This document shows positions 10,223-40,046 of a stretch of DNA of 64,000 nt, one piece after another. The first letter of the stretch is position 1, and each line of letters starts with the position of its first letter. The stretch is from an uncultured Spirochaetaceae bacterium. Its GTDB lineage: Bacteria > Spirochaetota > Spirochaetia > SZUA-6 > Bin103. Under the pieces are notes generated by a model. The model saw only the letters and a program-made list of their open reading frames with translations, was not told the origin of the DNA and searched no databases. The translations under genes were made by a program, and so were the position numbers. The stretch covers positions 1,440-65,439 of the forward strand of contig CAZTZA010000004.1 in NCBI GenBank assembly GCA_964618015.1. Direction: 5' to 3'.

Positions 10223-10572
10223 TGTTCTATAAGCCCGATAGAACCGATCATGTCATAGTTCATAGCATGGCTGTTGACATCGCATCGACCCCGTTGCTGC
10301 CTTGATTGGAACCTTCAATTCTGGGAATCTGGACAATATACTTCAAACAAAGGTCATCGTCAGGGGCTATCTCAATTTTCCGATAAGGTACGGTTGGTGA
10401 CCGTAATTCATGATTATCTATGAGGCTCAGGATAGCTGAGCTCGTTATATAGGGTTGGCGTCTTCTCGTAAGTTTAGAGTTATCACCAAGATGAATCCGG
10501 TATGTTTCTATTCGATTGAAGTGTTCTACTCCCGGTGGTGCAAGAAGCTTCCACCAGCTAAAGTTGAATTCC

Positions 10573-12009
10573 ATGAACATTGGTAACCGTAAACAGCTGC
10601 TTGTAGATAATTATGTGGTCGAAGATACGTGGAATCTTAAAAGGGTTGTCACAAGGCCGGTTAAGCACCACAAAAACCCGGTACTGTTAGCAGATCAGCC
10701 GTGGGAGGATTACAGTCGCCCTGGTCATCGGAGCAATAACAAGAGTCTGCATGCTACCGCTGTGCTGTACGATCAAGACGAAGGGTTATTTAAGCTTTGG
10801 TATAATTCTTCTCATTTTGTGCACTGGAACAGTCCTGAGGACAACACTTTTACTTATTGGATTGGCTACGCGACCTCTCAAGATGGGCTGGTATGGGAGA
10901 AGCCTAACGTTGGCTTGTTTGATTTTAACGGATCTAAGGAAAACAATGTTGTCCTTACAGGTGAATGGTGGGCGACTGGCGGTACGGTGCTTAAGGAGAA
11001 TCATGAGACTGATCCATCACGACGCTATAAACTGCTTTACACTGATATTTTTGGGGTTCAATCCCCAGAACGACTAGTTGAAGACGCGAAGGCTCACAAG
11101 CTGCGTCCCGGGATTTGTATTGCTTACTCGCCTGATGGAGTCCATTGGACTCCTCATGGAACTAATCCTGTAATCGAGGGTGAGTCCGATACGATGAACA
11201 CCATGTTCTGGGATGAACAACTTGAACGCTATGTCCTCTTCATGCGCCCACCCGTTTATGCCGGGCGTTGGAAGCGTCGTGTGGCACGTGCAGAGAGCCC
11301 TGATCTCATCAGATGGAGCTTCCCCGAGACGGTGGTAACACCCGATGAGCTTGATCCAGTCGAGATGTATGGAATGCCAGTGTTTCCTTACGAAGGGATC
11401 TATTTCGGGTTGTTGCAGATGTACTATTCTGACACTTCGATGACCATCGATACGCAATTGACTTTCAGTCGTGACGGAATTCTGTGGGATCGTTTGCCGA
11501 CACGTGAGACCTTTATGGAGCGAGGGATCGAACACGGTCAAGCGCGAGAATTTGATCGTGGGATGTTGTTTCCATTGCCTCCGGTCACTGTTGGAGATGA
11601 GTTGTGGTTTTACTACACTGGCCATAATGTCCTCCACAATGAGAAATCCGGATCTAATGAAAGTTCTGTTGGTTTAGCCATACTCAAACGCGATCGCTTT
11701 ATTGCCCGGACGCCTGTTCGTCCAAATGATGGGGTCTTGGTGACCAAGTCGTTTCCGTGTGAAGGGGACGAACTTTCAATAAACGCGTCAGCGTCGAATG
11801 GGCAAATTCAGGTAGAAGTGCTTACTGAAGCTGGAGAGGTCGTTGAAGGATTCGGCCGTGACGAGTGTCAACCATTCAAGAGCGATTCGTTCTCTCACTC
11901 TGTGCAGTGGAAGCGGGGAGCTCTGTCCTCCATTCGTGGCACAAGGATTCGGTTTAAATTTTTTCTAAACGAGGCTAGCTTGTACGCGTTCCAAGTCATG
12001 GAGCGGTAG
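10573..12009 (+). CDS. Putative glycoside hydrolase, five-bladed β-propeller fold (GH43/GH32-clan-like) with a C-terminal β-sandwich
   Basis: Repeated 'W..dG..W' blade-like motifs, acidic residues in the 'LLVDNYVVED' N-terminal blade, and the overall ~480 aa architecture. Family not resolved from sequence alone. Confidence 0.4.
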   Translation: MNIGNRKQLLVDNYVVEDTWNLKRVVTRPVKHHKNPVLLADQPWEDYSRPGHRSNNKSLHATAVLYDQDEGLFKLWYNSSHFVHWNSPEDNTFTYWIGYATSQDGLVWEKPNVGLFDFNGSKENNVVLTGEWWATGGTVLKENHETDPSRRYKLLYTDIFGVQSPERLVEDAKAHKLRPGICIAYSPDGVHWTPHGTNPVIEGESDTMNTMFWDEQLERYVLFMRPPVYAGRWKRRVARAESPDLIRWSFPETVVTPDELDPVEMYGMPVFPYEGIYFGLLQMYYSDTSMTIDTQLTFSRDGILWDRLPTRETFMERGIEHGQAREFDRGMLFPLPPVTVGDELWFYYTGHNVLHNEKSGSNESSVGLAILKRDRFIARTPVRPNDGVLVTKSFPCEGDELSINASASNGQIQVEVLTEAGEVVEGFGRDECQPFKSDSFSHSVQWKRGALSSIRGTRIRFKFFLNEASLYAFQVMER

Positions 12010-19369: not shown

Positions 19370-20407
19370 ATGAGCACAGGGATTAGGGTCGGCGTGATAG
19401 GGGCCGGGGCCAACACACGGAGTATGCACATTCCGCGGCTGCAGGCGATCGACGGTGTTACGGTGATGAGTGTTTGTAATCGATCTCACGAGTCTGGCGC
19501 GAAAGTAGCCGCCCAGTTTGGAATTCCGGAAGTACTTCCTTCCTGGCGATCTGTGGTAGATGCGGACGACGTGGATGCGATCGTGATAGGGACCTGGCCT
19601 TATCTGCACAAAACGGTTTCGATCGCTGCACTGGAGTCTGGAAAGCATGTGCTGTGCGAGGCTCGTATGGCGTGCGATGCTGCGGATGCACAGCTGATGC
19701 TCAGAAGCTCGCGTGAACAACCAGAGTTGGTTGCGCAGCTTGTACCGTCACCGATGACTCTGCGAGTCGATCGCACTATTCAGCGACTGATTGGCGATGA
19801 ATTCCTGGGAGACCTGCTGGCCGTGGAAGCGCGGATTTATAGTGGATTTCTTGATCGCACGGCCCCCCTGCACTGGCGTCAGGACGCTGAGTTGTCCGGC
19901 CGCAATATCATGACCATGGGTATTTGGTATGAAGCAATGATGCGTTGGGTAGGTACAGCTAGTCACGTTTCTGCTATGGGAAAGACTTTCGTGTCGCGCC
20001 GTCTTGATGCGTCCGGAATATTACGGGATGCAATAGTACCAGAGCATATTGACGTCACTGGCGAACTGCACTGCGGTGCACAGCTCCATATGCAAATTTC
20101 AGCCGTGGCGGGGCTTTCAGGATCCTCAGAGGTATTCCTGTTTGGATCTGACGGCACAATTCGCTACGATGGTGGCACCGACACGGTCTGGGTCGGAAGC
20201 CGTGAGGAAAAGGCGCTCACGGAGGAGGAGGTGCGTCCTGGTGAAGCGCTTTCCTGGCGGGTAGAGGAAGAATTCGTTGCCGCCATCCGTGGTGAGGAAC
20301 AGGTTGTGCTGACACCATTTAGCGTTGGATTGCAGTATATGGAATTCACCGACGCCGTGGCGCGTAGTATCGCTCAACGGCAGGTAGTCCCGGTGGGACT
20401 TGCATAG
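19370..20407 (+). CDS. Gfo/Idh/MocA family NAD(P)-dependent sugar oxidoreductase
   Basis: 'IRVGVIGAGANTRSMHIPRL' Rossmann N-terminus and the 'EKP' -> 'ESGKHVLCE' motif. Confidence 0.8.
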   Translation: MSTGIRVGVIGAGANTRSMHIPRLQAIDGVTVMSVCNRSHESGAKVAAQFGIPEVLPSWRSVVDADDVDAIVIGTWPYLHKTVSIAALESGKHVLCEARMACDAADAQLMLRSSREQPELVAQLVPSPMTLRVDRTIQRLIGDEFLGDLLAVEARIYSGFLDRTAPLHWRQDAELSGRNIMTMGIWYEAMMRWVGTASHVSAMGKTFVSRRLDASGILRDAIVPEHIDVTGELHCGAQLHMQISAVAGLSGSSEVFLFGSDGTIRYDGGTDTVWVGSREEKALTEEEVRPGEALSWRVEEEFVAAIRGEEQVVLTPFSVGLQYMEFTDAVARSIAQRQVVPVGLA

Positions 20408-20432: not shown

Positions 20433-21212
20433 ATGGATTTTTTTGCGCTCGCTTTACTAATGATTGTTGGTGTTATGGGCGGCTTCTTGAATACGGTGGC
20501 TGGCGGTGGCAGTGCACTAACCATGCCGATGCTGATCTTCTTAGGATTGCCGTCCACCGTGGCCAATGGCACGGCACGGGTAGCGATTATGTTTCAGAAC
20601 ATAACTGCTGTTGCTAGTTTTAAAGGAAAGGGGCACTTCGAGCCGGTGCTTAGTCTTCAACTGGGAATACCGGCTCTATTGGGAGCTTTAGTTGGCTCAC
20701 GGATTGCAATTCAACTCCCCGATTCGGTATTTAACACCGTCCTATCCGGTGTAATGGTTCTGGTTCTGATTTCAATCTTTTTTAAGCCTAACCGGATCGT
20801 TGCAGAACCTGACACTTCGCACTCAGGTCTTACTCGAGAACGGCGCTTCGGGATCATGGCGATTTTCTTTGTCATTGGCGTATACGGAGGATTTATCCAG
20901 GCAGGGGTCGGTTTTTTGATCATGAGTTCGCTGATTTTTCTTAGTAGCTACAATCTAGTGCGTATCAATGCAATAAAAGTGTCTGTGATTTTAGTTTTTA
21001 CTGTAGCAGCGCTTATTGTTTTCCTGCTGAATGGAAAAGTGGCATGGGGCCCAGGACTAATACTAGCCTTAGGCAACGCCGCTGGCGCTTGGTTGGGAGC
21101 ACGCTTTTCAGTAGCGGGCGGCGAGTCATGGATCCGAGTGTTCCTTGTGGTTGCCGTTCTTGTGATGGCAGTAAGAGTTTCTGGGCTACTGGAGTTGCTG
21201 GGCATCGTATAG
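20433..21212 (+). CDS. TauE/SafE (TSUP) family anion exporter, second copy
   Basis: 'LLMIVGVMGGFLNTVAGGGSALTMPMLIFLGL', 8 TM. Sits 26 nt after the oxidoreductase. Confidence 0.7.
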   Translation: MDFFALALLMIVGVMGGFLNTVAGGGSALTMPMLIFLGLPSTVANGTARVAIMFQNITAVASFKGKGHFEPVLSLQLGIPALLGALVGSRIAIQLPDSVFNTVLSGVMVLVLISIFFKPNRIVAEPDTSHSGLTRERRFGIMAIFFVIGVYGGFIQAGVGFLIMSSLIFLSSYNLVRINAIKVSVILVFTVAALIVFLLNGKVAWGPGLILALGNAAGAWLGARFSVAGGESWIRVFLVVAVLVMAVRVSGLLELLGIV

Positions 21213-21228
21213 CTTGGTGCGTTGGGGT

Positions 21229-22023
21229 ATGGTCCATTTGATTATGCCTGTAAAAGAAAACGCGGTAGTGCGTAAGCTTGCGGCTGGTGAGGTTCCGATT
21301 GGGGTGCTCGGGACCGACGCGGTTCATGAGTCCCATATAGAGCTCTTGCAGGAAGCTGGTTATGACTTTCTTATGTTTGATGGCGAGCACGGCGATTTCC
21401 CATCTGATCGTATCTCTTCGATTTGTCGCATTGGACGTCTAACCGGGTTCCCGGTGATTCTGCGAACGTTTTGCACTTATGAGCACATTCGCCGTGCATT
21501 GGATCTTGGCTCGCTCGGTGTGATCTTGCCAATGGTTGATACCGCTGAGCAAGTTGACACAATACGTCGTGCAGCTTTTATGCCTCCAATTGGTGAGAGG
21601 GGCCCAGGGGGTCACGGTAATCATCATGTTAGCGACTATCGTCGCGAGACCTGGGCGGAGCTGGAGGAGCAGTTGGCTATCATTCCGATGATAGAGACGC
21701 CGGGTGCTCTCCAAAATTTATCGATATTTGATCAACCTTGGGTAACTGCTTGCTTGGTTGGGCCGTACGATTTTTTGATGTCTCATGGCATGGATTTGAC
21801 CAATTTCTATCAGCCCGGAGGTTCACATGAATCGATAGTGCGTCGCGCTATCGATGGATGTGTGGCAATAGGAAAACCGTGTGGCACAGTAGTCGCCAAC
21901 GCAAAGATGGCGGTACGCTGGATAGGTATGGGTGCGAAGCTTATCGTCTGTGGTGAGTTGAATAGGATGATAGTTGATGCAGCAGTTCATAACATTAAAG
22001 TCATCAAGCACGAGACCGGCTAA
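21229..22023 (+). CDS. HpcH/HpaI family aldolase (2-keto-3-deoxy-sugar-acid aldolase, class II pyruvate aldolase)
   Basis: 'GVLGTDAVHESHIELLQEAGYDFLMFDGEHGDF' and 'ILPMVDTAEQVDTIRRAA' match HpcH/HpaI/YfaU (KDR aldolase). A TTG at 21214 directly follows the TauE stop; the ATG is at 21229. Confidence 0.7.
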   Translation: MVHLIMPVKENAVVRKLAAGEVPIGVLGTDAVHESHIELLQEAGYDFLMFDGEHGDFPSDRISSICRIGRLTGFPVILRTFCTYEHIRRALDLGSLGVILPMVDTAEQVDTIRRAAFMPPIGERGPGGHGNHHVSDYRRETWAELEEQLAIIPMIETPGALQNLSIFDQPWVTACLVGPYDFLMSHGMDLTNFYQPGGSHESIVRRAIDGCVAIGKPCGTVVANAKMAVRWIGMGAKLIVCGELNRMIVDAAVHNIKVIKHETG

Positions 22024-22033
22024 CGTTTAGCCC

Positions 22034-23062
22034 ATGGCGGATCACCCCCTGTACCCAACCGAACTTATAGGCAGCTATGCTTTGCCTGGCTGGCTAATTG
22101 CCTTCGAAGAACGAGCTGCTGCAGAAGATCTCGGCGATTCAGATATCGGCGAGGCACTTGATGACGCAGTTAACGTGGCATTATTTGATCAGGAGCGCGC
22201 TGGCGTAGACGTAGTCACCGATGGTGAGATGCGACGTCGCGACTTTATTCAGGGATTTTACGGTCGCATTACCGGCCTAACATCTCTGCCACCCAAGCGT
22301 TTGTTAGGGGCTGCTGGTTACGACCAAAACCCGCGTTACCGGGTTGACGGACAGCTTTGCGCCACAGGCGGCCTTGGTATTTGCGCCGAGGTGGATTATC
22401 TGCGCCATCTTACTGATAAACCGATCAAGGTTTGTGTGCCAGGCCCGGTTACCATGTCATTACCACTTTTACTTCCGGATGGCGGACGAAGTCGCGATGC
22501 AGTGCTGGCTGATATGATTTCCATTATTAACGCCGAGATGCAATCTCTAGTAGCTGCCGGCGTTACCTATTTGCAGATCGATGAGCCGCGGTATGCTACC
22601 AGCCACGCTGCCGGAGAAGAGTTAGTAGAGGTATTGAATGCAACTTACGATGGAGTGAAGGCCCGGGTCGGCGTGCACTTGTGTTTCGGCAATTTCAAAG
22701 GTCGCTCACGAGATCGTCGAGACTACCGATACCTTTTCCCAGCACTTAAAAAGGTGCGCTGTAGTCAACTCAATTTCGAGTTTGCTAACCGCGAGCTATC
22801 ACAGATTGAATTGTTGGCAGAAGTACCAGCGTCGATCGATGTGGGCGTTGGGGTGATAGACGTGAAGTCCTACTACGTGGAGCGGGCTGAAGAAGTGGCC
22901 ACTGCCCTGGAGAAGGCCGCCCTCCATATTGACGCTACCCGAATAGTCGCTGTCCCAGACTGTGGACTTAATCACTGTCCACGTCATATTGCCCGTGCCA
23001 AACTACGGGCGCTGACTGCCGGTGCGCAGATAGCTCGGCAGCGAGAAGGAGTGGGCCCATGA
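22034..23062 (+). CDS. MetE C-terminal-domain-like Zn-dependent thiol methyltransferase (cobalamin-independent methionine synthase family, stand-alone ~340 aa)
   Basis: URO-D/CIMS-like C-terminal domain with the Zn-ligand motifs 'HLCFGNF' (HxC) and 'PDCGLNHCPRH' (Cys). The N-terminal region 'PTELIGSYALPGW' corresponds to MetE 'TTTIGSFPR'. Confidence 0.6.
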   Translation: MADHPLYPTELIGSYALPGWLIAFEERAAAEDLGDSDIGEALDDAVNVALFDQERAGVDVVTDGEMRRRDFIQGFYGRITGLTSLPPKRLLGAAGYDQNPRYRVDGQLCATGGLGICAEVDYLRHLTDKPIKVCVPGPVTMSLPLLLPDGGRSRDAVLADMISIINAEMQSLVAAGVTYLQIDEPRYATSHAAGEELVEVLNATYDGVKARVGVHLCFGNFKGRSRDRRDYRYLFPALKKVRCSQLNFEFANRELSQIELLAEVPASIDVGVGVIDVKSYYVERAEEVATALEKAALHIDATRIVAVPDCGLNHCPRHIARAKLRALTAGAQIARQREGVGP

Positions 23063-23397
23063 AACGATACGGATCAATCATAGGCGTGCGGCAAGAAAAG
23101 CTCGAGGAGTACGTACAGTTGCATAGTGCTGTATGGCCGGAAGTGTTGGATTGTATCCATCGGTGTAATCTCCGCAATTACTCAATTTTCCTGCGTAAAA
23201 TGCCCGACGGAAAGCATTATTTATTCTCCTACTTTGAATACGTCGGGACCGATTTCGCTGCTGATATGGCAGCAATGGGACGGGATCCTAAGACGAAGGA
23301 ATGGTGGAAACTAACCGACCCATGTCAGGAGGCGCTGCCAGACCGCGCAGAGGGTGAATGGTGGTCAATGGCTAAAGAAGTGTTCCACGTCGATTAG
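23059..23397 (+). CDS. rhaM: L-rhamnose mutarotase-like (RhaM family, ~110 aa)
   Basis: 'HSAVWPEVLDCIHRCNLRNYSIFL' matches RhaM '[24 protein letters not shown]', and 'WWKLTD' matches 'WWKYMTD'. Its start overlaps the upstream stop (ATGA). Confidence 0.75.
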   Translation: MKRYGSIIGVRQEKLEEYVQLHSAVWPEVLDCIHRCNLRNYSIFLRKMPDGKHYLFSYFEYVGTDFAADMAAMGRDPKTKEWWKLTDPCQEALPDRAEGEWWSMAKEVFHVD

Positions 23398-24121
23398 AAA
23401 GCCAACAAGCCCGGAGAAGAGAAATATCGTCGCTATAGGTGGTGGCGGATTTGCGGCAGATGGTGACCTGAAAATAGAGAACTACATTCTGAAGATGACT
23501 CGTGTTCATCGTCCCTCAATAGGTTTTATCCCGACTGCAACAGGTGATGCAACTGAATATATAATAAGATTCTACGACGTCTGTTCTCGTCTATCCTGCC
23601 GACCAACCCATCTTGGGATGTTTGCGCGGACGCCTGATCTGCGAGAGTGGGTGTTTGCGCAGCATGTAATCTTTGTCGGTGGTGGCAATACGAAGAGCAT
23701 GCTGGGGGTATGGCGAGAGTGGGCGCTTGACGAGGTTCTGCGAGATGCATGGGAGAGCGGTGTTATCCTGTCGGGCGTCAGTGCTGGGGCAATCTGTTGG
23801 TTTGAGCAGGGCAGTACGGACTCTTATGCTAACTGCCTTACGTCGCTCGACTGCCTTGGGTTTTTATCTGGGAGCTGCTGTCCTCACTATGATGCTGAGG
23901 AAGAGCGACGTCCGACGTTCCAACGGATGCTGAGGGAAAGAAAGATCAGTTCCGGTATTGCGTTGGACAACGACTCGGCTGCTCATTTTGTTGGTACGAA
24001 TCTGCATCAAGTTGTGTCTGCGCGGCCTGGATCCCAGGGGTATAGGGTCTATGTTCTCGATGGAGAAGTGCAGGAGGTGCCTCTGAAAACCGTTTATCTT
24101 ACCTCTTCTAAATGCACTTAA
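23354..24121 (+). CDS. Peptidase S51 (dipeptidase E/cyanophycinase-like, class-I glutamine-amidotransferase fold)
   Basis: 'IVAIGGGGF', 'VIFVGGGNT' and the nucleophile elbow 'GVSAGAICW'. The start is unresolved and overlaps the rhaM 3' end. Confidence 0.55.
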   Translation: MNGGQWLKKCSTSIRKPTSPEKRNIVAIGGGGFAADGDLKIENYILKMTRVHRPSIGFIPTATGDATEYIIRFYDVCSRLSCRPTHLGMFARTPDLREWVFAQHVIFVGGGNTKSMLGVWREWALDEVLRDAWESGVILSGVSAGAICWFEQGSTDSYANCLTSLDCLGFLSGSCCPHYDAEEERRPTFQRMLRERKISSGIALDNDSAAHFVGTNLHQVVSARPGSQGYRVYVLDGEVQEVPLKTVYLTSSKCT

Positions 24122-24161
24122 GTGATCAACTTTACGGTCCATTTGTTGTAGGAGTAATAAC

Positions 24162-25088
24162 GTGATTCATCGATTTCTCATTGGTATCTCATCTAGCAAC
24201 GGCACGCCGCGCGCTCAGGTTGACTTGGACGGCGCGGGTAAGCGTCACCTTGGCATTCAGCGGTTCGTGCTATCCGACGGTACTGATGCCGTCTTGCCCG
24301 ATCATCCTACTTGGGATTGTCGCGAGTGGCAGTGGTGGGCTGGTTATGACGGCTCGACGGAGATGAGGCCGCGCACAGAATCTGCAGTATGCGGAGGTTC
24401 TGAACGTGACGATGTAGCCGAGGTTTGGAGCGAGTATCTTTGTGACGGCGTACGGACGCGACACGTATGGACTGTTCCTACTGTTCAAGAGCCACCGAGT
24501 CTTGGTTACGATTGTTTCATCACTGTCACTAATGAAACGGGGACTGACCTTAGAGAGTATGGTCAGTTCTTCGCCTGCTACACTAGTCTCAACCGGACCA
24601 TGGGTAAAAGGCCTGCTCGGTCGGATGCAATAGGCTGCTGGTTCTGGGATGGATCAGGAAGTTTAGTCAATTTCCTCGCGATCGGTGGTTACCATATAGA
24701 TCGCCTAATCGTTGACCCAGAAAGTGTCTATTCGAAGATAGGCATGGTTCCCCATTGCCCGCGTGGAGATGGTCGCGTCGGCGGGGTTTGGACGCACCCA
24801 GTAATAGTTTCTCATCCAGCTCCAGGTGGTGAGCGTCATATTATCCTTCTCGAGCCAGGAACTACCGCAGCAGTGTGTATGGGTATGGGAGGACTAGCGA
24901 TGGACTACATTGTCTTTCCAGGGTCTCTCGTGTTCGCTGCTGGAAGCAGCAGTAGGACCAGGGTTAGGCACTATGTCATGCCCCTTCCAGAAGGCAAAGA
25001 GATCGAACGTTTAAGCGAGCTCTGGGCAGAATTCGAAATAGACCTCCATCAGCCATGGCCGACTATCGGTCCAACGCAGGCTAAATAG
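24162..25088 (+). CDS. Hypothetical protein, 308 aa, Trp/Cys/Gly-rich, no recognisable family
   Basis: Long ORF with a GTG start 40 nt after the upstream gene, co-oriented with the operon. I recognise no motif. Confidence 0.45.
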   Translation: MIHRFLIGISSSNGTPRAQVDLDGAGKRHLGIQRFVLSDGTDAVLPDHPTWDCREWQWWAGYDGSTEMRPRTESAVCGGSERDDVAEVWSEYLCDGVRTRHVWTVPTVQEPPSLGYDCFITVTNETGTDLREYGQFFACYTSLNRTMGKRPARSDAIGCWFWDGSGSLVNFLAIGGYHIDRLIVDPESVYSKIGMVPHCPRGDGRVGGVWTHPVIVSHPAPGGERHIILLEPGTTAAVCMGMGGLAMDYIVFPGSLVFAAGSSSRTRVRHYVMPLPEGKEIERLSELWAEFEIDLHQPWPTIGPTQAK

Positions 25089-25119: not shown

Positions 25120-25137
25120 CACTGCTATTTAGCAGTG
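25120..25137. promoter_or_regulatory. Perfect 8-2-8 inverted repeat CACTGCTA-TT-TAGCAGTG overlapping a TTGACA -35-like hexamer (25116–25121), upstream of the sugar ABC transporter genes
   Basis: Palindrome read directly from the sequence, 107 nt upstream of the permease ATG at 25244. Confidence 0.5.
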
Positions 25138-25243: not shown

Positions 25244-26248
25244 ATGTCTGACGGCTCTACTGCACCAGCTAGTCTTACTGGTGACGCCCAAGTGGGCGAT
25301 TCTCTGCAAAAGGGGAAAGCTGGTCGACGGTCGATTGGTTCTCGCTGGGCGGAAAATATTGACTTAATACGTCGATATCCTGCCCGTCACATCATGCTCG
25401 CTATCGCCCTAGTGTGGCTGATTATATTCCACTACATCCCAATTTGGGGCATTACATTTGCCTTTAAAAGATTCAGCCCAATCGAGGGGTTCTTCGGTGG
25501 TGATTGGGTGGGGCTCAAGTATTTCGGGCAATTTGTCACGGACCCCAACACACTCCGGCTGATACGTAACACAGCCATATTAGGATTCCAGCAGCTTTTA
25601 TTCGGATTCCCAGCGCCAATAATGTTCGCGATCTTGCTCAACGAGCTGGCGAATGGGCGTTTTAAAAATTGGATGCAGTCCTTTACCTACCTGCCACACT
25701 TCGTTTCTCAGGTAGTGATTGTCGGACTGATGTTCCAGCTCGTAAATTTTGAAGGATTTATCACGAGGATCATTGCAGATATAACCGGCTCAGCGCCCGT
25801 AATCCTTTCTGATCCAGGTGCCTTCCGGCCGATGTATATTATTTCTGGACTTTGGCAAAACCTAGGCTGGGGGTCGATTCTCTACCTGGCGGCGATGACT
25901 GGGATCAACCCAGAGCTATACGAGGCAGCGGATATCGATGGAGCTGGTCGATTCCAAAAGATATGGCGTGTGACGTTGCCTGCCATTCTACCGACAATTC
26001 TGGTGCTTCTTATTCTCAATACCCGGTCGCTAATTGATGTCGGGTTCGAGAAGGCTCTCCTAATTCAAAATCCTGCTACTTACGAGACATCAGACATAAT
26101 TCAGACGTACGTTTATCGTCGGGGTATCCAAAATGGTCAATATGGTTATGCGACTGCTGTCGGTTTGCTGAACTCTATTATCTCGTTCTCCATCGTTTAC
26201 GCGACCAATAGGATTGTGCGAAAAGTCCGGGGTCAAGGGCTCTGGTAA
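25244..26248 (+). CDS. Carbohydrate ABC transporter permease, LplB/YtcP-like (MalF-type)
   Basis: 6-TM protein with an EAA-like loop 'LYEAADIDGAGRFQKIWRVTLPAI'. The long N-terminal cytoplasmic region is typical of LplB. Confidence 0.8.
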   Translation: MSDGSTAPASLTGDAQVGDSLQKGKAGRRSIGSRWAENIDLIRRYPARHIMLAIALVWLIIFHYIPIWGITFAFKRFSPIEGFFGGDWVGLKYFGQFVTDPNTLRLIRNTAILGFQQLLFGFPAPIMFAILLNELANGRFKNWMQSFTYLPHFVSQVVIVGLMFQLVNFEGFITRIIADITGSAPVILSDPGAFRPMYIISGLWQNLGWGSILYLAAMTGINPELYEAADIDGAGRFQKIWRVTLPAILPTILVLLILNTRSLIDVGFEKALLIQNPATYETSDIIQTYVYRRGIQNGQYGYATAVGLLNSIISFSIVYATNRIVRKVRGQGLW

Positions 26249-26250
26249 CG

Positions 26251-27201
26251 ATGGTACACGCGCATCACAAGTCATTTGGATCTAGGCTTTTTGACATTGC
26301 CAATTCATTCTTTATTCTTACCATTGGTCTAACAGCGCTGTACCCATTTCTCCATATGGCAGCGATATCTACGAGCGATTTCTTTGCTGTCGGATTTGGT
26401 AAAGTAAGTATACTTCCTGTTGACTTCAGCCTAGATATCTATACTTACCTGTTTCAGTATAATCCATTTATCGGTCGTGCTTACTTTAATTCTATTCTAT
26501 ATACTGTTTTAAACACTTTCCTCACGGTCTTGCTGTGCGCTATGGCCGGCTTTGCCCTTGCGCAACGTAGATTAGCATTTCGCGGATTCTCGGGAACCCT
26601 ATTGTTGGTCTCAATGTTCTTTGGGGGTGGCCTGATCCCGACCTTTCTGTGGATTAGAGAGCTCGGTATGTTGAATTCAATATGGTCAATCGTGCTGCCG
26701 AACGCGGTGGCGGCCTACTATGTATTTCTATTTCGGGTTTATATCCACAGTAACGTTAGTGAGGAGATTCTGGAGTCCGTTTACATCGATGGTGGCGGGG
26801 ATTTTCGAGTTTTCTTCAAGATTGTAATGCCCCTTATCAAGCCGATGATAGCAACGATTGGGTTATTTGCGGCCGTAGCCATGTGGAATTCTTTTTTCAG
26901 TGCTCTAATATATTTAAGCGACCGTAACAAGTACCCGCTAACGCTTTTCTTGAGGGAAGTAGCCGTGATCGGTGGCTTTGGAGGATCCAGTGTAGGTGGC
27001 CCTGATGCGGGTGCGGAGCAGCTCACTGCCTATGAGATGGAGGGACAGTTCGACGCTTCTCTTGAAGTATGGCAGGGCGGTTATTTGAAGGCAACGCAGA
27101 TGGCATTCACGCTGATCACTGTAATTCCGGTTCTCTTTGTGTACCCATTTGCACAGCGATATTTTGTTAAAGGTATCACAATAGGGTCTGTAAAAGGATA
27201 A
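26251..27201 (+). CDS. Carbohydrate ABC transporter permease, LplC/YtcQ-like (MalG-type)
   Basis: 'ESVYIDGGGDFRVFFKIVMPLIKPMIATIG' EAA region. Starts 2 nt after the upstream permease. Confidence 0.8.
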   Translation: MVHAHHKSFGSRLFDIANSFFILTIGLTALYPFLHMAAISTSDFFAVGFGKVSILPVDFSLDIYTYLFQYNPFIGRAYFNSILYTVLNTFLTVLLCAMAGFALAQRRLAFRGFSGTLLLVSMFFGGGLIPTFLWIRELGMLNSIWSIVLPNAVAAYYVFLFRVYIHSNVSEEILESVYIDGGGDFRVFFKIVMPLIKPMIATIGLFAAVAMWNSFFSALIYLSDRNKYPLTLFLREVAVIGGFGGSSVGGPDAGAEQLTAYEMEGQFDASLEVWQGGYLKATQMAFTLITVIPVLFVYPFAQRYFVKGITIGSVKG

Positions 27202-27295
27202 CGTGCTTGAGTTGCATTTGCACTGTTTGCTAAACTGCGTTGTTACGATAAGCTGATTATTTGCAGTTTAATAGAAACGTAAGGAGGCATTCGTT

Positions 27296-29014
27296 ATGAA
27301 ACAACGGCTTTTCCGTTGGGTGGTACTCTTAGCAGGTCTGATGATCGTATCAGCCGGCGCGTGGTCTGAGGGAAGCTCTGACGCGGCGTCAGGTGAGCCA
27401 CCGGTGATTGTTTGGTCGGGGTTCTATGAGTTTAATAAAAACGCTACCCCAGAAACCTTGGTGATGCAGTGGATTGGAGAGGCTACTGGTTCCGTTCTCC
27501 AGCCGATGCATGTCGAACAAGGAGATAGGGCTACCTGGTGGAGCACCACCTTGGCATCCTTGGATTTCCCAGACGTGATGGAATACTGGGGTCAAATGGG
27601 CGATGATCCAAATATTTACGGCCCACAAGGTCTATTTGTTCCTCTATCTGAGGAGCGAGCAGAAGGGCGCATGCCCAACTTCGATCGGGTGATGACACAC
27701 TGGGATGCAGATAACTTTCAACGTTTTGCACCAGATGGGCACGTTTACATAGCCACTAAGATAGAAGGGCGGTTTATTCAGCCAAAGGTACCGGGATTCG
27801 TACTTCGCAGTGACCTAATGGATGCAGCAGGGTATGACACCAGTATCCCTAATCAGTTCACGACTATCGACCAGGTGCAGCATGCGCTTATCGCTATGAA
27901 GCCGCATTGGGACGCTATGTTTGGTGGACCGACTCCTGGTATGCATACCCGCGGTGACCGTGGTATTCGCAACAGTGGTCAGCTGCCTCGTGTTATCTAT
28001 AAGGACGAGTTCGCTGCTGATACCGCGATGCAGCTAGAGCCAGATAACGTCTGGCGGTTTGGTCCTCTTAGCCCTCGCTTCAAGCGTGCTACTGAGTTTC
28101 TCAGGGCGATGCACGAAGCTGGTATTCTGCACCCCGATTACCTGACGATGGCTGAAAAAGATCAGCGTCGACTTGACTGGGATGAAGGCAAGACCATGTA
28201 CTGGTGGGGTACTTGGGCTAGTAGTATCGAGCCTACTCAGGCTGAGAGATATTGTAGCCAAGGTACGGGCGGCGATGCATTCTGCGGTTTTTCTTCCTAT
28301 CCGGTTGTTGCTCCGACGGTAGATGGAGATGACCCCTGGATCCGGCAGCGCTCGATTGCAAGTTCGCGCGCGGTACTATCCGCTGACGGAGATAACGTTG
28401 CGAGCGCAGTAGCTATGCTCGACTTCCTTTACAGTGATGAGGGCGCTACGATTGCGTCATATGGTCCTGAGGGCTATGCCTGGGAATTCGATGATACTCC
28501 AGGAAACGACTGGAATCGCCGATGGACTTTGTGTTGGAGCGGTTCATATCCGGCACTAGAGTGCCAGGAGAACGATCCAGATCGCTCTAAGACTCGCGGT
28601 GAGATGATCGGCGAGGGCCCGCAGGTATTAATACAGGGCGGACCATCTGATACATGGGGGATGGACTGGACCAATTATTATTGGGATCCAGCTGACCTCG
28701 AAGGCAAGAAGGCTGATCGGGCCGTCACCCTACAGACTTGGAGCGATTGGCGCGCAGCCGGTAGTTGGGCTCTTGATCCCGTACCTGCCTTTGGCTTTGA
28801 GCCTGACGAGTTAGACGAGAAGGCTCAATTGGAGCAGCAGTTGCACACCTATGTTGATGAGCAGATCGCACGATTTATCAACGGTCAGAACAATATGCAC
28901 AGCGACTACAGAGCTTTTACGAGTCGTCTCAATGATCTAGGCGCAGCTCGGTTGGCAGAGATCTACAATACGGCGATGAATCGGTACCTGGACGCTGCGG
29001 GTATCTCACTTTAA
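27296..29014 (+). CDS. Extracellular solute-binding protein, family 1, large LplA-like (~570 aa), secreted
   Basis: Signal peptide 'VVLLAGLMIVSAGAWS', AGGAGG RBS, and the size and Trp-rich composition typical of LplA-type polysaccharide-fragment binding proteins. Confidence 0.7.
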   Translation: MKQRLFRWVVLLAGLMIVSAGAWSEGSSDAASGEPPVIVWSGFYEFNKNATPETLVMQWIGEATGSVLQPMHVEQGDRATWWSTTLASLDFPDVMEYWGQMGDDPNIYGPQGLFVPLSEERAEGRMPNFDRVMTHWDADNFQRFAPDGHVYIATKIEGRFIQPKVPGFVLRSDLMDAAGYDTSIPNQFTTIDQVQHALIAMKPHWDAMFGGPTPGMHTRGDRGIRNSGQLPRVIYKDEFAADTAMQLEPDNVWRFGPLSPRFKRATEFLRAMHEAGILHPDYLTMAEKDQRRLDWDEGKTMYWWGTWASSIEPTQAERYCSQGTGGDAFCGFSSYPVVAPTVDGDDPWIRQRSIASSRAVLSADGDNVASAVAMLDFLYSDEGATIASYGPEGYAWEFDDTPGNDWNRRWTLCWSGSYPALECQENDPDRSKTRGEMIGEGPQVLIQGGPSDTWGMDWTNYYWDPADLEGKKADRAVTLQTWSDWRAAGSWALDPVPAFGFEPDELDEKAQLEQQLHTYVDEQIARFINGQNNMHSDYRAFTSRLNDLGAARLAEIYNTAMNRYLDAAGISL

Positions 29015-29085: not shown

Positions 29086-30732
29086 ATGTTCTCTTTAGTC
29101 TGCAAATGGCGACGTCAGTTCGCTATTACTGTGGTCGCCCTTTGGGGGGTTCTCATTGGTTCTGCTTATGCTGATGGGGTACCAGCCCAGGTTACTGTCC
29201 AGATAAGTGAGCTTGCCCCTCGTACAGGTTGTGAGACGGAATTTAGGGTTCATGAGTTAGACCACCGGACGCTGCCTTCTGGATACCCGATTCAACTATT
29301 CGACAGTCATGGCACCGGGATAGCTGCTGGCGATCTCGATAGCGATGGTGACCTTGACTTGGTGCTTACTAATCTCGAGGGGCCTGCTTCGATACTATGG
29401 AACGAGGGTAAACTGAAATTTCGGCACGAGATGCTCCCGATCAGACATTCTCGAGCTGTCACCATTATTGATGCTGACGGGGATGGCATCCTCGATATAG
29501 CTTTGACGAAAAGTACAGGTCCAATAGAGATTTGGAGCAGGGACACTCTAGAGGAAAATTTTAAACGGCTTCTACAGCCGATGCCTAGAGAAATAGCTTT
29601 TACGATGGCTTGGGGTGACCTGGATAGAGACGGTGATCTTGACCTTGTTACGGCTACTTACGACGCTGAGATTGTGAAGAATTTTGGCTTCGGGCATGAG
29701 TCGGGAGGTGTCTTTTACCATGAAAGATCCGGGGATCAGTTGCTAAGTAATCGACTATCTGATCGTGCTGAAGCCTTAGCGCTTTTATTAGTTGATCTTA
29801 ATGATGATGGTCAGCTAGACATTCATGTCGGAAACGACTTCGCTTTAATTGATGAGGTCTGGTTACGTGTCGAAGACGGCTGGTCGAAGGCTATGCCATT
29901 TGCGGCGATTAGCCGTAACACGATGAGCCTAGATGCGGGTGACGTGGATGGGGACGGTAGAGAAGAGTTATTTGTAGCCGACATGAGCCCGTATAGTTTG
30001 GAGCTAGCCCGGCACTATCTCACGGTGATGATGAGGATGGCAGAGTTTCCGGGCGAGCAGGCAGACCAACAAGTGATTGCTAACGTTCTCCTCTTCCGTG
30101 GTGCGGATGGAATCTATCAGAACAGGGCATTGAGTGCAGGGGTAGGTTCGAGTGGATGGAGCTGGTCTTCGAAATTTGGTGATCTAGATCACGATGGGAC
30201 TCTAGATCTCTATATTGTTAATGGCATGGTCGGGAGCGAACAGTTTCCGTATTTACCAGGGGGAGAACTAATTGAGGAGAATCAAGCATTCCGAAATATT
30301 GGTGACGGTAAATTTGAACCGGTTCCACAATGGGGACTTGGTTCCAAGAGAAGTGGTCGTGGTATGGGCATGATTGATCTCGACCTGGACGGCGACCTGG
30401 ATATCGTTGTCAATAATTTAGCGTCCCGGGCACAGTTGTTTGAGAATAGAACCTGTGAGGGTACATCCGTTCAGGTTGACCTGCATCAGTCGGGGGGAAA
30501 CACGCGTGCAATTGGAGCAGTCGTTCTACTACACACTAGCGATGGTATCCAGCGACGAGATATCCGTTCGGCGAGTGGATATCTATTTGGAGACCCTCAA
30601 CGCGTTCACTTCGGTTCGTCTCACGACACACTTCTTCAGGCTCTGGAAGTGCGATGGCCTGATGGTGCTGTTTCAACAATTCAAGATCCCCCAACCGATG
30701 CACTTGTTTCGGTATATCGCCTTCGCGGATAG
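29086..30732 (+). CDS. CRTAC1-family protein: FG-GAP/VCBS β-propeller repeats plus a C-terminal ASPIC/UnbV domain, secreted
   Basis: Signal peptide; repeated 'DLDSDGDLDLV', 'DADGDGILDIAL', 'DLDRDGDLDLVTA' and 'DLDHDGTLDLYIVNG'. The C-terminus 'RRDIRSASGYLFGDPQRVHFGSS...VRWPDG' is UnbV_ASPIC-like. Confidence 0.7.
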   Translation: MFSLVCKWRRQFAITVVALWGVLIGSAYADGVPAQVTVQISELAPRTGCETEFRVHELDHRTLPSGYPIQLFDSHGTGIAAGDLDSDGDLDLVLTNLEGPASILWNEGKLKFRHEMLPIRHSRAVTIIDADGDGILDIALTKSTGPIEIWSRDTLEENFKRLLQPMPREIAFTMAWGDLDRDGDLDLVTATYDAEIVKNFGFGHESGGVFYHERSGDQLLSNRLSDRAEALALLLVDLNDDGQLDIHVGNDFALIDEVWLRVEDGWSKAMPFAAISRNTMSLDAGDVDGDGREELFVADMSPYSLELARHYLTVMMRMAEFPGEQADQQVIANVLLFRGADGIYQNRALSAGVGSSGWSWSSKFGDLDHDGTLDLYIVNGMVGSEQFPYLPGGELIEENQAFRNIGDGKFEPVPQWGLGSKRSGRGMGMIDLDLDGDLDIVVNNLASRAQLFENRTCEGTSVQVDLHQSGGNTRAIGAVVLLHTSDGIQRRDIRSASGYLFGDPQRVHFGSSHDTLLQALEVRWPDGAVSTIQDPPTDALVSVYRLRG

Positions 30733-30789
30733 AAAGTTGTTTTCTCTGCTATCAATAAGATAGACAGAGCTACGGATATTCTAAGAGAA

Positions 30790-32328
30790 ATGGCTAATCG
30801 AGAGGGTTCTCCAGCTTTTCGGGGATGGGCAATTCTGATTGCAGCTGGAGTATTGACAGTAGTGATCGGATTCGTTGTTTTCTTTCGTGGGGCTGACGGA
30901 GTTGAACCTAACGCTTGGCGCTCACTTCCTGATGTCCCAGAGGTTGTAGTAGTGAGCTGTGCCGGCTGTCATGATCCCCCCAACCCGGACGAACTTGCAC
31001 GGGCTGATTGGTTCCGTTCGCTGGCACGAATGAGATCGATCATGGCGGAGCAGGCAGGGGTTCAGCTTACAGACTACGATTATTTTCAGGTTTGGAAGTA
31101 TTTTCGTAATCATTCGCCCGACACCCTACCTATATTGGCTCAAGATCCAGTTGATTCACCGATCTTATTCGTTGCGGATTCTATTGCTCCCCCTGAGGGG
31201 GTTCCTCCACTAATTACTTCTGTCCAAGCGGTTGATTTTGATGCTGACGGTACTATCGAAATCTTGGTCAGTGACGCTCGGCGTAATACAGTTTCAATGA
31301 TGTCTATGGCAGATGATCGGTGGAAGGAAAAGGTGATTGGTCATATAGCAGCGCCAGCACGTGCGGAAGTGCACGACCTTGACGGAGACGGAGATCAGGA
31401 CATTGTAGTTGCATCTCTTGGGATCTTGCCGCCTACCGATGAGTTGGTCGGCAGTGTTGTTTTGTTAAGGTCGATCTCTGATGGATACCGGACGGAAGTG
31501 TTATTAAGTGACGTTGGTCGCGTAGCTGACGTTCGTGTCGGTGATATAGACGCTGATGGTGACATGGATCTGGCGGTTGCTATATTCGGTCATATCTCCA
31601 CTGGAGCGATCGTATGGATGGAGCAGGTTGACGGCGGTACCTTCCGATATCATGAACTTGAAGCTGTATCCGGGGCTAGCCATGTGCCAATCGTTGACCT
31701 CGATGGCGATGGTCTATTGGATATAGTCGCTCTAATATCACAGGCGAGTGAAAAGATCGACGTGTTCATGAATCATGGGTTTGGCGTCTTTAAGAAGCGA
31801 ACGTTATTTCGAGCGCCACCGCCCCTATTTGGATCCTCCGGCATTTCGCCGGTCGACCTTGATCAAGATGGGGATATAGACTTCATCTATAGCAACGGTG
31901 ACGCCTTCGATGTACCTGCGGCTCAGTCAACATCCATGTTACGTCCGTACCATGGGGTCCAATGGTTGGAGAACCGAGGTCGACGAGGTTTTGTAAGCCA
32001 TGATTTGCTCCGCTATTACGGTGCATTCAGTCCAATTCCAGCCGACCTTGATGAAGACGGAGATACTGATATCGTTGTCACTAGCTTGGTGAATGATTGG
32101 GCTGATGAGTCTCGTCGCAGCTTGATCTGGCTGGAGAACGACGGATCCCAGCAATTTACCGCGCATGGCATCGCGAGTTCTCCGACGCATCTGGTTTCAG
32201 CTGATGTTGCTGATATAGACGGAAACGGTCGCTTGGACATAGTAGCTGGTGGTTTGCATATGTTCCCGCCGTACAATCGGCTGGGACGTGTGACGGTTTG
32301 GGCTAATCAAGGTTCACTAGGCCAATAA
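30790..32328 (+). CDS. FG-GAP repeat protein with an N-terminal membrane anchor and a CxxCH motif
   Basis: TM helix 'WAILIAAGVLTVVIGFVVFF'; 'SCAGCHD' at nt 30958–30972; at least seven 'D.D.DG..D(I/L)' repeats. Confidence 0.65.
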   Translation: MANREGSPAFRGWAILIAAGVLTVVIGFVVFFRGADGVEPNAWRSLPDVPEVVVVSCAGCHDPPNPDELARADWFRSLARMRSIMAEQAGVQLTDYDYFQVWKYFRNHSPDTLPILAQDPVDSPILFVADSIAPPEGVPPLITSVQAVDFDADGTIEILVSDARRNTVSMMSMADDRWKEKVIGHIAAPARAEVHDLDGDGDQDIVVASLGILPPTDELVGSVVLLRSISDGYRTEVLLSDVGRVADVRVGDIDADGDMDLAVAIFGHISTGAIVWMEQVDGGTFRYHELEAVSGASHVPIVDLDGDGLLDIVALISQASEKIDVFMNHGFGVFKKRTLFRAPPPLFGSSGISPVDLDQDGDIDFIYSNGDAFDVPAAQSTSMLRPYHGVQWLENRGRRGFVSHDLLRYYGAFSPIPADLDEDGDTDIVVTSLVNDWADESRRSLIWLENDGSQQFTAHGIASSPTHLVSADVADIDGNGRLDIVAGGLHMFPPYNRLGRVTVWANQGSLGQ

Positions 32329-37706: not shown

Positions 37707-40046
37707 TCAACGGACTAATCGCTTAAATCCTTCCTCCGGCAGCGGGCCGCGCATTCGATCCACGATGTCACCTTTGCGAATAGCATCGGCTAATTCGGCC
37801 ATTACTTGCTCCATCGCCACTGCGTGCTTATTTAATACCTCTTCGGTATGTGCCATCGAGCAGTAGATTGAAGGGGGTGCCAAGAAGCCGCGCTCAAGCA
37901 TGAGATGGGTATATAGGTTGCTGAGTTCACGTCCTTGCTCGTGATCGAAGCTGGCGCTGGCAAAACACGGATAGTTGTCAGAAACCACCATTGGTATTCC
38001 TGCCGCTTCGGAGTGCTTGCGCCAGTCCTCTTTGACGCGATTTCCGACCTTAGCCACGAAAGCGGGTACATCTAGTTGTTGCGTCATCTTCTTAACTGCT
38101 GCTACTGCTGCCGCGGGTCCCACTCCCTCAGTCCAATAGCTTGAGGAGATAAAGGAGCGTTCAGCTCCCTCCATTGCAGAGGCAGTTCCAATAACTGCGC
38201 CAATTGGGTGGCCATTACCGAGGCTTTTGCCAAATGCTGCTATATCAGGATTGACGCCGAAAAGTGCATGAGATCCAGCTGTTGCCAATCGGAAACCTAT
38301 GGAGGTCTCATCAAAGATGAGGAGTGCTCCAACGCGATGTGCTTCGTCTCTAATGTGCTCCAGATATCCTGGCTCCGGGTCCTTTCCTCGGCAAGGTTCC
38401 ATCACTACCGCCGCAAGCCTATCGCCGTATTCGGCAATTATGCGGTCAAATCCAGATGCATCTCCCTGCTCAAAGACATGGGCAGTGCCTCGCAATTCAC
38501 GCGGTACGCCCAGTGGTTCCAGACCGGGCATCAGATTCCCAGCGAGTGCTTCTTCTTCACCTAGATTGGCAGCTAGATACCAATCATGCCAGCCATGATA
38601 GCCACTGACAGCTACTACCGAGCGGTCCGTGGTAGCACGAGCGATGCGGACTGCTACAGTCATGGTTTCTCCCCCAGTACGCGCCAAACGAACACGCTCC
38701 GCCCAAGGGTGAAGTCCACACATCAATTCAGCTAGCTCAATCTCCTCGCGTGGGTTTAGTTGGCAACAACTCCCCAGGCTGACTCGTCTTACTACTGCAC
38801 GCGTTACGTCTGGGTCTCGGTAGCCCAAAATGGTGGCGCCGACAGCGTGTGAACTGCAATCAAAAAAGTGTCTGCCTGCCTCGTCCCACACTTCGCAGCC
38901 TCGAGCCTCACGAAAATAGGGAGGCCAAACATCGGGAGCGAAACGGTCAGGATTCTTACTAAGTAAATGATTTCCGCGTGGGATGATAGTGAGCGCATGC
39001 TCATAACTCTTTTGACCAAGCTGGGGATCTACTTCACGCAGGCCGAGTAGTCGCTCGGCGTTATCACAGAAGATATCCTGTAGGTCGAGGTCGTTCAGTC
39101 CAAATCGGTCGCCTGCTTGAAAAATAGCCCGTAGTTCTTCGAGGCCAACTTGGATAGGTTGACCGAAGAAAGCCTGCTCATTCCAATCCAACTGATCAGT
39201 GGTAATCCAGGCGAAGCCACTGCCCAAGGTCATGTGTCGGCCGCGTTGGTGCGAGACTGGAAAGTCTGATCCGTACATCAGTTGCCGTGGCCCAAACTCC
39301 TCCAGGATCGCAATCATCGGCTCTGCCTCGCAGATTGCGGAAGTGTCAAACCAGATATTCTGCAACCCACGTAAGGAGCCGATTGCCTTGGTAGTATTAG
39401 GTCCGTGAAACCCTCGTGCCGCGTGCGCCAGAATTAGCTGCGCATTTGGGAAGCGTTCACATTTCTCACGGATCTGACGTTGGTTCTCCGGATCGTCTAG
39501 TGCAGGGTCTCGGACGATGTGTAACATGATGAACCAGCCTCGGGCATCTGCAACCTTCCAGGTCCATTCCGGCAGGAATTCGTCAATGTATGACTGTTGC
39601 GTGTCAGAGCGGTCACTGTAGCAATGGTAGCATTTAAAACCGCCTATTCCCTCGCCTTCGAGATGTTCTTCAACGTCAGAAAGTTCCGTGTGCGCATCGA
39701 CCAAATAGGCTCTAATATTCCTTGGTTGGCCTGAAACCTCTGCTTCCACAAAATCGTTTTTTGGGCCGATTGGCAAATCAGCTGAAGGGAAAGGCAGTAC
39801 TAGTGAGCCGACCATGCGGTCCTGGCCACCAAGCTGTCTGCCTACCAGTTTACGCCAGTCATCTAGTCTTACTTGCTCCGGTCCCCAATTAATCATTGTT
39901 CCGACCTGCGGGAAATGTGCTCTATCGTATAAATGCATGTGAGCGTCAAAAATGCGTTCTGGAACGCGTTTGGATAACTCTTCCGTTGCCTCCTGATCAG
40001 CGTTGGTTGTTTTCCATCCGGTCGCGAACTGTTCGTTCATCTGCAT
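37707..40046 (-). CDS. Bifunctional fusion: N-terminal amidohydrolase_2 (metal-dependent TIM-barrel hydrolase) plus C-terminal class-III (ω-type) PLP aminotransferase
   Basis: N-terminal half has 'FDAHMHLYD' (HxH metal motif), 'LILAHAARG' and 'MYGSDFP'. C-terminal half has 'GNHLLSKNP...EVWDEAGRHFFD' and the PLP-lysine context 'LIFDETSIGFRL...NPDIAAFGKSLGNGHPIGAV'. Single 779-aa frame. Confidence 0.7.
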   Translation of the reverse strand: MQMNEQFATGWKTTNADQEATEELSKRVPERIFDAHMHLYDRAHFPQVGTMINWGPEQVRLDDWRKLVGRQLGGQDRMVGSLVLPFPSADLPIGPKNDFVEAEVSGQPRNIRAYLVDAHTELSDVEEHLEGEGIGGFKCYHCYSDRSDTQQSYIDEFLPEWTWKVADARGWFIMLHIVRDPALDDPENQRQIREKCERFPNAQLILAHAARGFHGPNTTKAIGSLRGLQNIWFDTSAICEAEPMIAILEEFGPRQLMYGSDFPVSHQRGRHMTLGSGFAWITTDQLDWNEQAFFGQPIQVGLEELRAIFQAGDRFGLNDLDLQDIFCDNAERLLGLREVDPQLGQKSYEHALTIIPRGNHLLSKNPDRFAPDVWPPYFREARGCEVWDEAGRHFFDCSSHAVGATILGYRDPDVTRAVVRRVSLGSCCQLNPREEIELAELMCGLHPWAERVRLARTGGETMTVAVRIARATTDRSVVAVSGYHGWHDWYLAANLGEEEALAGNLMPGLEPLGVPRELRGTAHVFEQGDASGFDRIIAEYGDRLAAVVMEPCRGKDPEPGYLEHIRDEAHRVGALLIFDETSIGFRLATAGSHALFGVNPDIAAFGKSLGNGHPIGAVIGTASAMEGAERSFISSSYWTEGVGPAAAVAAVKKMTQQLDVPAFVAKVGNRVKEDWRKHSEAAGIPMVVSDNYPCFASASFDHEQGRELSNLYTHLMLERGFLAPPSIYCSMAHTEEVLNKHAVAMEQVMAELADAIRKGDIVDRMRGPLPEEGFKRLVR

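Follow-up and report, generated by a model that had tools for sequence, protein, structure and literature searches.

A rare protein family with a predicted galactose-mutarotase-like fold recurs in catabolic gene clusters of Spirochaetia, Poribacteria and other bacteria

We analysed a window of 64,000 nucleotides from an uncultured Spirochaetaceae bacterium (GenBank assembly GCA_964618015.1, contig CAZTZA010000004.1, positions 1,440 to 65,439 of the forward strand) and one open reading frame (ORF) within it, at 24162..25088 (+), which starts with GTG and encodes a 308-aa protein, hereafter the target. The target is a genuine, conserved protein-coding gene, and the family to which it belongs is real, rare and isolated in sequence space. 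Structure prediction gives this coding sequence a single domain, a galactose-mutarotase-like beta-supersandwich with a C-terminal helix. What is new is the sequence family; its carbohydrate-binding fold is well known, and on present evidence the target does not amount to a new kind of system. The gene lies among catabolic genes in several phyla, and the function that we tentatively favour, as a leading candidate short of a conclusion, is that of a cytoplasmic enzyme performing acid-base chemistry on an anionic sugar, at the anomeric centre or beside it.

The target lies 40 nt downstream of a Peptidase_S51 gene and 155 nt upstream of the first permease gene of an ABC importer; these gaps, like the coordinates, the length and the GTG start, are exactly as the initial annotation of this DNA had given them. 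A Shine-Dalgarno-like AGGAG (24150..24154, +) precedes the GTG by 7 nt, and the start is fixed because eight Spirochaetia orthologues have ATG at the homologous codon (MI[QH]RF...). Among Spirochaetia orthologues the ratio of non-synonymous to synonymous substitution rates (dN/dS, Nei-Gojobori) is 0.21-0.35, indicating purifying selection. The initial annotation had also considered that the frame might be spurious, a product of GC-rich DNA lacking homologues and conservation. Local GC is only ~50%, so that a 308-codon open frame is already improbable by chance, and the protein is conserved across phyla. Some observations do fit a spurious frame or a decaying pseudogene, since a few Spirochaetia copies are truncated or frameshifted (P0005, P0006, P0014, P0024, P0042 and L010, the last being an extra, frameshifted copy whose genome has an intact one as well, L008) and relatives carry insertions of mobile or toxin-antitoxin genes around the gene. 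Nevertheless, the window copy is intact and full-length and has the conserved start and its Shine-Dalgarno sequence, and together with the dN/dS values, the homologues across phyla, the GC content and a highly confident fold prediction this makes such an explanation almost inconceivable, and on these grounds we reject a spurious ORF.

Pfam, NCBIfam and the PDB do not contain the family: the target had no sequence match in any of the three (E<=0.1 for Pfam), and both phmmer and a profile hmmsearch against all PDB sequences returned nothing at E<=10. A word-indexed search of 5.8 billion proteins recovered 42 homologues, from 99% down to ~33% identity and none with a Pfam domain, and an exhaustive phmmer (HMMER) search of 1.84 billion representatives clustered at 50% identity gave 53 matching cluster representatives, one of which (P0071, a 3310-aa repeat protein) was discarded as a low-complexity/repeat artefact. 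When the family profile was searched against the 5.8 billion proteins, nothing beyond the family itself was found. The initial description of the target as an orphan without recognisable family is therefore right as to the missing sequence family and wrong as to the orphan. A scan of 185,579 species genomes located 47 loci of the family. The closest relatives of the target are in Spirochaetia metagenome-assembled genomes (71-75% identity), and further carriers include many Candidatus Poribacteria (36-41%), Chloroflexota (40-42%), Armatimonadota, Kiritimatiellae, Acidobacteriota and Planctomycetota, among the last of these the cultured Bythopirellula polymerisocia Pla144. In a large subfamily (Planctomycetota and relatives) a signal peptide is followed by a conserved CEDEHPP motif. 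The protein of the window has no signal peptide and is predicted to be cytoplasmic and soluble.

Conservation was read from alignments of 37 and 39 family members, which share the motifs W-D-x-R-E-W-Q-W-W, R-P-R, Y-D-C, E-Y-G-Q-F-F-A-C-Y-T-x-x-N, W-x-W-D, G-W-R-H, A-M-D-Y-I-x-x-P-G, R-H and L-W-x-x-F; a further motif, P-H-C-P-R-G, is limited to the closer members. G31, W51, R71, D117, N124, F137, P213, P253 and R269 are invariant in 39 of 39 sequences, and conservation reaches at least 90% at R54, E55, W59, Y133, Q135, A138, Y140, W162, P197, R225, G244, A246, D248, Y249, H270, W288 and F291. Most of these ~25 columns hold charged or polar residues (R, D, E, N, H, Y), and they remain conserved even in members with 26% identity. 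The target is indeed rich in Trp and Cys, as first described (3.6% and 2.6%, about twice the 1.8% and 1.1% averaged over long ORFs of the window), and the four peptides that were pointed out as containing Cys pairs (CREWQWW, CGGSERDD, CDGV and CPRGDGR) are all present. No Cys, however, is found among the invariant or at least 90% conserved columns of either alignment, and whole subfamilies have replaced them (C53 by Y, T or N; C139 by S or N; C199 by A or F, or absent), so that the Cys pairs are lineage-specific and not functional hallmarks. A metal-binding or redox protein built on Cys motifs is thus ruled out.

An AlphaFold2 model computed with the 37-sequence alignment is of high confidence (predicted local distance difference test, pLDDT, 90.3; predicted TM-score, pTM, 0.90) and comprises ~17 beta-strands and the C-terminal helix. 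Foldseek matched it in the PDB to aldose 1-epimerases (3nre), the YidC periplasmic domain, the NDH subunit PnsB2 and accessory domains of the glycoside hydrolase (GH) families GH38, GH36 and GH94, with TM-scores of 0.45-0.50 and probabilities of ~1.0. The best structural neighbour in the PDB is an exo-rhamnogalacturonan lyase of polysaccharide lyase (PL) family PL26 (5xq3_B), followed by aldose 1-epimerase-type proteins (3mwx, 16.0; 3ty1, 15.7; 3k25, 15.6; 3nre, 14.5) and then by GH38 and GH94 domains, GH174 fucanases (13.4-13.7) and the PL4 lyase 1nkg (13.3). These neighbours assign the modelled protein to the galactose-mutarotase-like beta-supersandwich, which narrows its probable function to carbohydrate chemistry. 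Thus, the protein in which no motif had been identified does lack a sequence family, and yet its fold could be recognised by the structure prediction and structure search that the initial annotation had proposed.

Within this fold, the target differs from the known groups closest to it. It resembles the aldose 1-epimerase superfamily (GalM, YphB, the hexose-6-phosphate mutarotase YeaD; PF01263) in the predicted supersandwich, and has no sequence or profile match to it: none of 37 family members matched PF01263 at E<=10, and identity in structural alignments is 7-12%. The family motifs (WDxREWQWW, RPR, EYGQFFACYT, AMDY, RH) also differ from those of aldose 1-epimerases, as do the richness in Arg, the lack of an evident family-wide His pair and the extra C-terminal helix. 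GalM of L. lactis uses a catalytic Glu base and a His acid, with a His/Asp/Arg set that binds the sugar. In the sequence alignment, the target family conserves R71, D117, D248, Y249, R269 and H270. The supersandwich lyases and hydrolases (PL26, 5xq3; PL4, 1nkg; GH174, 8jd7/9k1g; GH38 C-domain enzymes) are multi-domain proteins of 450-1100 aa (881 aa for 5xq3, 508 aa for 1nkg), in contrast to the one 308-aa domain of the target, and PL26 and the others share 8% identity with it and no sequence-level relationship; no match to the 5xq3 or 1nkg sequences was obtained by phmmer or by profile in the PDB.

There is also a likeness to DUF6807 (PF14100, "PmoA family protein"), whose size, predicted fold and order of secondary-structure elements, C-terminal helix included, are as in the target, whose best PDB neighbour is also 5xq3_B, with a near-identical list of matches, and which is encoded, fused to Peptidase_S9, directly beside the target in Planctomycetota loci. 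Profiles were compared by hhalign using a single, 4 or 34 DUF6807 sequences as well as trimmed cores, and no comparison reached significance (probability 0.1-0.6%, E=0.09-0.5; for 39 target-family against 34 DUF6807 sequences, probability 0.2% and E=0.27, and for the trimmed cores E=0.09), and the PF14100 hidden Markov model matched none of 37 family members even at E<=10. A permissive alignment of the two profiles runs collinearly through 181 columns, in which analogous motifs are paired. Sequence homology to DUF6807 is thus unsupported by four hhalign tests and the similarity is at the level of the fold only; on the predicted structures the two families appear to be fold-level siblings, for which a remote homology is plausible. 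No functional work was found in the literature on DUF6807 or on MetE-like/HpcH clusters, the genomic contexts of DUF6807 were uninformative as a functional analogy, and a domain that itself lacks a known function adds no mechanism for the target.

In the window, the target belongs to a string of genes on the same strand. The string is headed by a GFO/IDH/MocA oxidoreductase (19370-20407, +) and a TauE/SafE anion permease (20433-21212, +), with gaps of 1-25 nt in this stretch. There follow an HpcH/HpaI class II 2-keto-3-deoxy-acid aldolase (21214..22023, +; Pfam 5.5e-12), whose matches to the NCBIfam models HpaI, KDR-aldolase and GarL were all under the cutoffs, a MetE-like protein with the Meth_synt_2 catalytic domain only (22034..23062, +; Pfam 5.9e-29), whose NCBIfam methionine-synthase matches were likewise under the cutoffs, an L-rhamnose mutarotase family protein of the RhaM type (23059..23397, +; Pfam 3.9e-30) and, immediately upstream of the target, the Peptidase_S51 gene (dipeptidase E/cyanophycinase type; 23354..24121, +; Pfam 9.3e-46). 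By eye, the MetE-like protein keeps the H-x-C and PDCG Zn-ligand motifs (VHLCFGN, VPDCGLNH), a Poribacteria example being L017:7772-8836. Downstream lies the ABC importer (25244..29014, +), made of two BPD_transp_1 permeases assigned by Pfam and a solute-binding-like protein of 572 aa, which is secreted to judge by its signal-like N-terminus and has no Pfam match. No recognised GH or PL is encoded in this importer operon, and the synteny of target and importer is retained in the related locus L003. The 155-nt gap between the target and the permease contains a perfect 8+2+8 palindrome (25120..25137), CACTGCTATTTAGCAGTG, that is CACTGCTA-TT-TAGCAGTG, which occurs once in the window where 0.02 occurrences are expected by chance; it may be an operator or mark the boundary of two transcription units, and so keep the importer apart from the catabolic genes or link their regulation. 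No Rfam family, terminator-like or sigma-70-like pattern was detected in the gaps that flank the target, and the RNA fold of the 155-nt gap is no better than that of shuffled sequence (z=-0.7).

To compare neighbourhoods, ORFs were called in all fetched loci and clustered by BLASTP, and the recurrent clusters were annotated, which revealed five contexts. In Spirochaetia the order is GFO/IDH/MocA, TauE, HpcH aldolase (cluster c2), MetE-like (cluster c1), RhaM, S51, target, ABC permeases and solute-binding proteins. In Poribacteria (17 loci) a tight string on one strand runs in the order of MetE-like, M19 dipeptidase, target, PhyH-like, class IV aminotransferase, HpcH aldolase, SIS-like, M28 peptidase and alpha/beta-hydrolase genes, of which the MetE-like, M19, aminotransferase and HpcH genes are each found in 16 of the 17 loci. 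Co-occurrence of the target with HpcH and MetE-like genes is thus seen in 5-6 of 9 Spirochaetia loci and 16 of 17 Poribacteria loci, and the link of target, MetE-like protein, HpcH and a dipeptidase survives between two phyla at ~37% identity. In Chloroflexota the genes around the target encode a PL22-like beta-propeller (weak, E=3e-4), a GT-C-like membrane protein, a Pfam-less family termed c12 and a LacI-type binding domain. In Planctomycetota the secreted target stands in the order PL22 oligogalacturonate-lyase-like, Amidohydro_2, dihydrodipicolinate synthase (DHDPS)-family, target, DUF6807-Peptidase_S9 fusion, DUF1501, CN_hydrolase and sulfatase. Sulfatases accompany the secreted forms in general: a further secreted member of the family (P0026, locus L052) adjoins sulfatase, polysaccharide deacetylase, AP_endonuc_2, GH42- and BNR-type genes. 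The most divergent members, finally, follow a GFO/IDH/MocA gene and a divergent D-Ser-dehydratase-like pyridoxal phosphate (PLP) enzyme and precede Amidohydro_3, a PfkB kinase and an SDR, with MFS and aldehyde dehydrogenase genes nearby. These contexts share enzymes of sugar or sugar-acid catabolism (oxidoreductase, keto-deoxy-acid aldolase or kinase, oligouronide-lyase-like, GH130-like) and some amide hydrolase, the identity of which varies from S51 in the window to M19 in Poribacteria, CN_hydrolase in Planctomycetota and Amidohydro_3 in the most distant members. Co-occurrence with TauE, HpcH and MetE-like genes, suggested by the initial annotation, is therefore borne out for HpcH and MetE-like genes across Spirochaetia and Poribacteria; linkage to TauE is confined to Spirochaetia loci, which removes it as a family-wide partner.

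What reaction would such a protein catalyse? We infer the substrate class and the reaction type from the fold, the conserved residues and the contexts. To our knowledge, all characterised single-domain proteins of the supersandwich fold do acid-base chemistry at the anomeric centre. Four conserved Arg and several Trp, together with the recurrence of sulfatase, uronate and TauE contexts, point to an anionic sugar as the ligand. We thus envisage that the ABC importer beside the target brings in a glycoconjugate or oligosaccharide from which an anionic sugar would be released, and that the target would bind this sugar (a uronate, sugar acid, sulfo- or sulfated sugar, possibly with an amino-acid remnant attached) and carry out ring-opening, anomerisation or epimerisation, as aldose 1-epimerases do. 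The product might then be passed to the GFO/IDH/MocA oxidoreductase and the 2-keto-3-deoxy-acid aldolase (HpcH here, DHDPS elsewhere), while the adjoining amide hydrolase (S51 here) could strip off the amino-acid or acyl part. The earlier suggestion of a missing enzymatic step or substrate-processing factor fits the operon position and the HpcH/MetE-like co-occurrence, so that a missing step is plausible.

A close rival, which is itself doubtful, is a new family of enzymes that cleave glycosidic bonds or glycoconjugates, lyases or hydrolases with a catalytic supersandwich: the cytoplasmic form would cut an imported oligosaccharide or glyco-amino-acid, and the Planctomycetota form, beside its sulfatases, would act in the periplasm or at the cell surface. 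The PL26 lyase as top structural match, the existence of a secreted subfamily and an importer operon in which no GH or PL is recognised all speak for cleavage, as does the presence of RhaM, next to which a second mutarotase would be partly redundant. Both the mutarotase-like and the cleavage readings assume an enzyme. Many of the fold matches are non-catalytic accessory domains, and the target could by analogy be a carbohydrate-binding or scaffolding protein, like YidC-P1, PnsB2 or the accessory supersandwich domains of GH38, GH94 and GH36; we hold this to be quite improbable, because the target is a stand-alone protein encoded among enzymes, and the ~25 mostly polar columns that it conserves down to 26% identity form a pattern typical of an active site, arguing for an enzyme rather than a scaffold.

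A role outside carbohydrate metabolism deserves somewhat more credit than a scaffold, although it too is improbable. Here the fold would have been recruited to an amino-acid or peptide derivative, handled together with the MetE-like Zn enzyme, dipeptidase, aminotransferase and HpcH. This would fit the fact that the MetE-like, dipeptidase (S51 or M19) and HpcH genes are the most conserved neighbours across Spirochaetia and Poribacteria, that the Poribacteria loci also encode a class IV aminotransferase, a PhyH-like protein and an M28 peptidase and those of Spirochaetia relatives an M16 peptidase adjoining the gene, and that the most distant members stand beside an Amidohydro_3 of the N-acyl-D-amino-acid-deacylase-like type and a D-Ser-dehydratase-like PLP enzyme. 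It fits poorly with the Chloroflexota and Planctomycetota loci, which are devoid of MetE-like or HpcH genes and carry GH130-like, PL22-like, sulfatase, DHDPS and LacI-type binding domain genes, with the structural neighbours, all carbohydrate-related except YidC and the NDH subunit PnsB2, and with a Trp-rich conserved surface typical of sugar binding. Altogether, we retain chemistry at the anomeric centre of an anionic sugar as our tentative preference.

A second uncharacterised family, c12, travels with the target. It adjoins the target in Chloroflexota and in Planctomycetota is found near it, fused to a LamG domain, and the window encodes a member, a 497-aa Pfam-less GH130-like beta-propeller protein at 10516..12009 (+), recognised by BLASTP (29% over 478 aa, E=3e-47). 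The c12 family profile matched GH130 beta-mannoside phosphorylases (E~1e-4) and a "carbohydrate-binding protein" (6n1a, 6e-7) in the PDB, and is accordingly taken to describe a beta-propeller protein resembling glycoside hydrolases or phosphorylases. In the Chloroflexota loci L001, L026 and L033, pairs of UPF0261 (Tm-1-like) and PEP_hydrolase-like genes recur a few genes upstream of the target, and the GT-C-like membrane protein, of 800 aa, weakly matches the arabinofuranosyltransferase AftB. In the Spirochaetia relatives L003 and L004-L011, S51, the target and the ABC transporter have been separated by insertions of PIN/VapBC-type toxin-antitoxin pairs, AAA_14/DUF4143 ATPases, an HNH gene and a ~1000-aa M16 peptidase; gene order is otherwise kept. 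Directly downstream of the importer's binding protein, the window encodes two tandem FG-GAP/ASPIC (UnbV) repeat proteins (29086-32328, +) with signal- or transmembrane-like N-termini, which could be extracellular components of the importer system. Farther on, at 37707-40046 (-), Amidohydro_2 and a class III aminotransferase are unusually combined in a 779-aa fusion, which adjoins an MR_MLE enolase-superfamily gene and a GHL10 protein.

Sponge-associated Poribacteria, Chloroflexota and Spirochaetia, together with Planctomycetota and Kiritimatiellae, are known for degrading host-matrix and sulfated glycans. It is a rather unlikely prospect that the target represents a new class of small single-domain supersandwich enzymes, possibly including DUF6807, with a reaction outside any CAZy or EC family. 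One could think of an enzyme that splits a conjugate of a sugar with an amino acid, or of an acidic sugar in amide linkage, originating from the sulfated matrix glycans of animals or algae. In sponge symbionts (Poribacteria, Spirochaetia, Chloroflexota) and in Planctomycetota, this enzyme would partner with an amide hydrolase, and it would define a new GH- or PL-type family as well as a new catabolic pathway involving the MetE-like Zn enzyme and the GH130-like propeller. Since one carrier, Bythopirellula polymerisocia Pla144, is in culture, the question is accessible to experiment. Knowing the reaction of the target would supply a step of at least two uncharacterised pathways, one with MetE-like protein, dipeptidase, target and HpcH and the other with PL22-like protein, DHDPS, target, CN_hydrolase and sulfatase, and could illuminate the much larger DUF6807 family, now mis-annotated as "PmoA".
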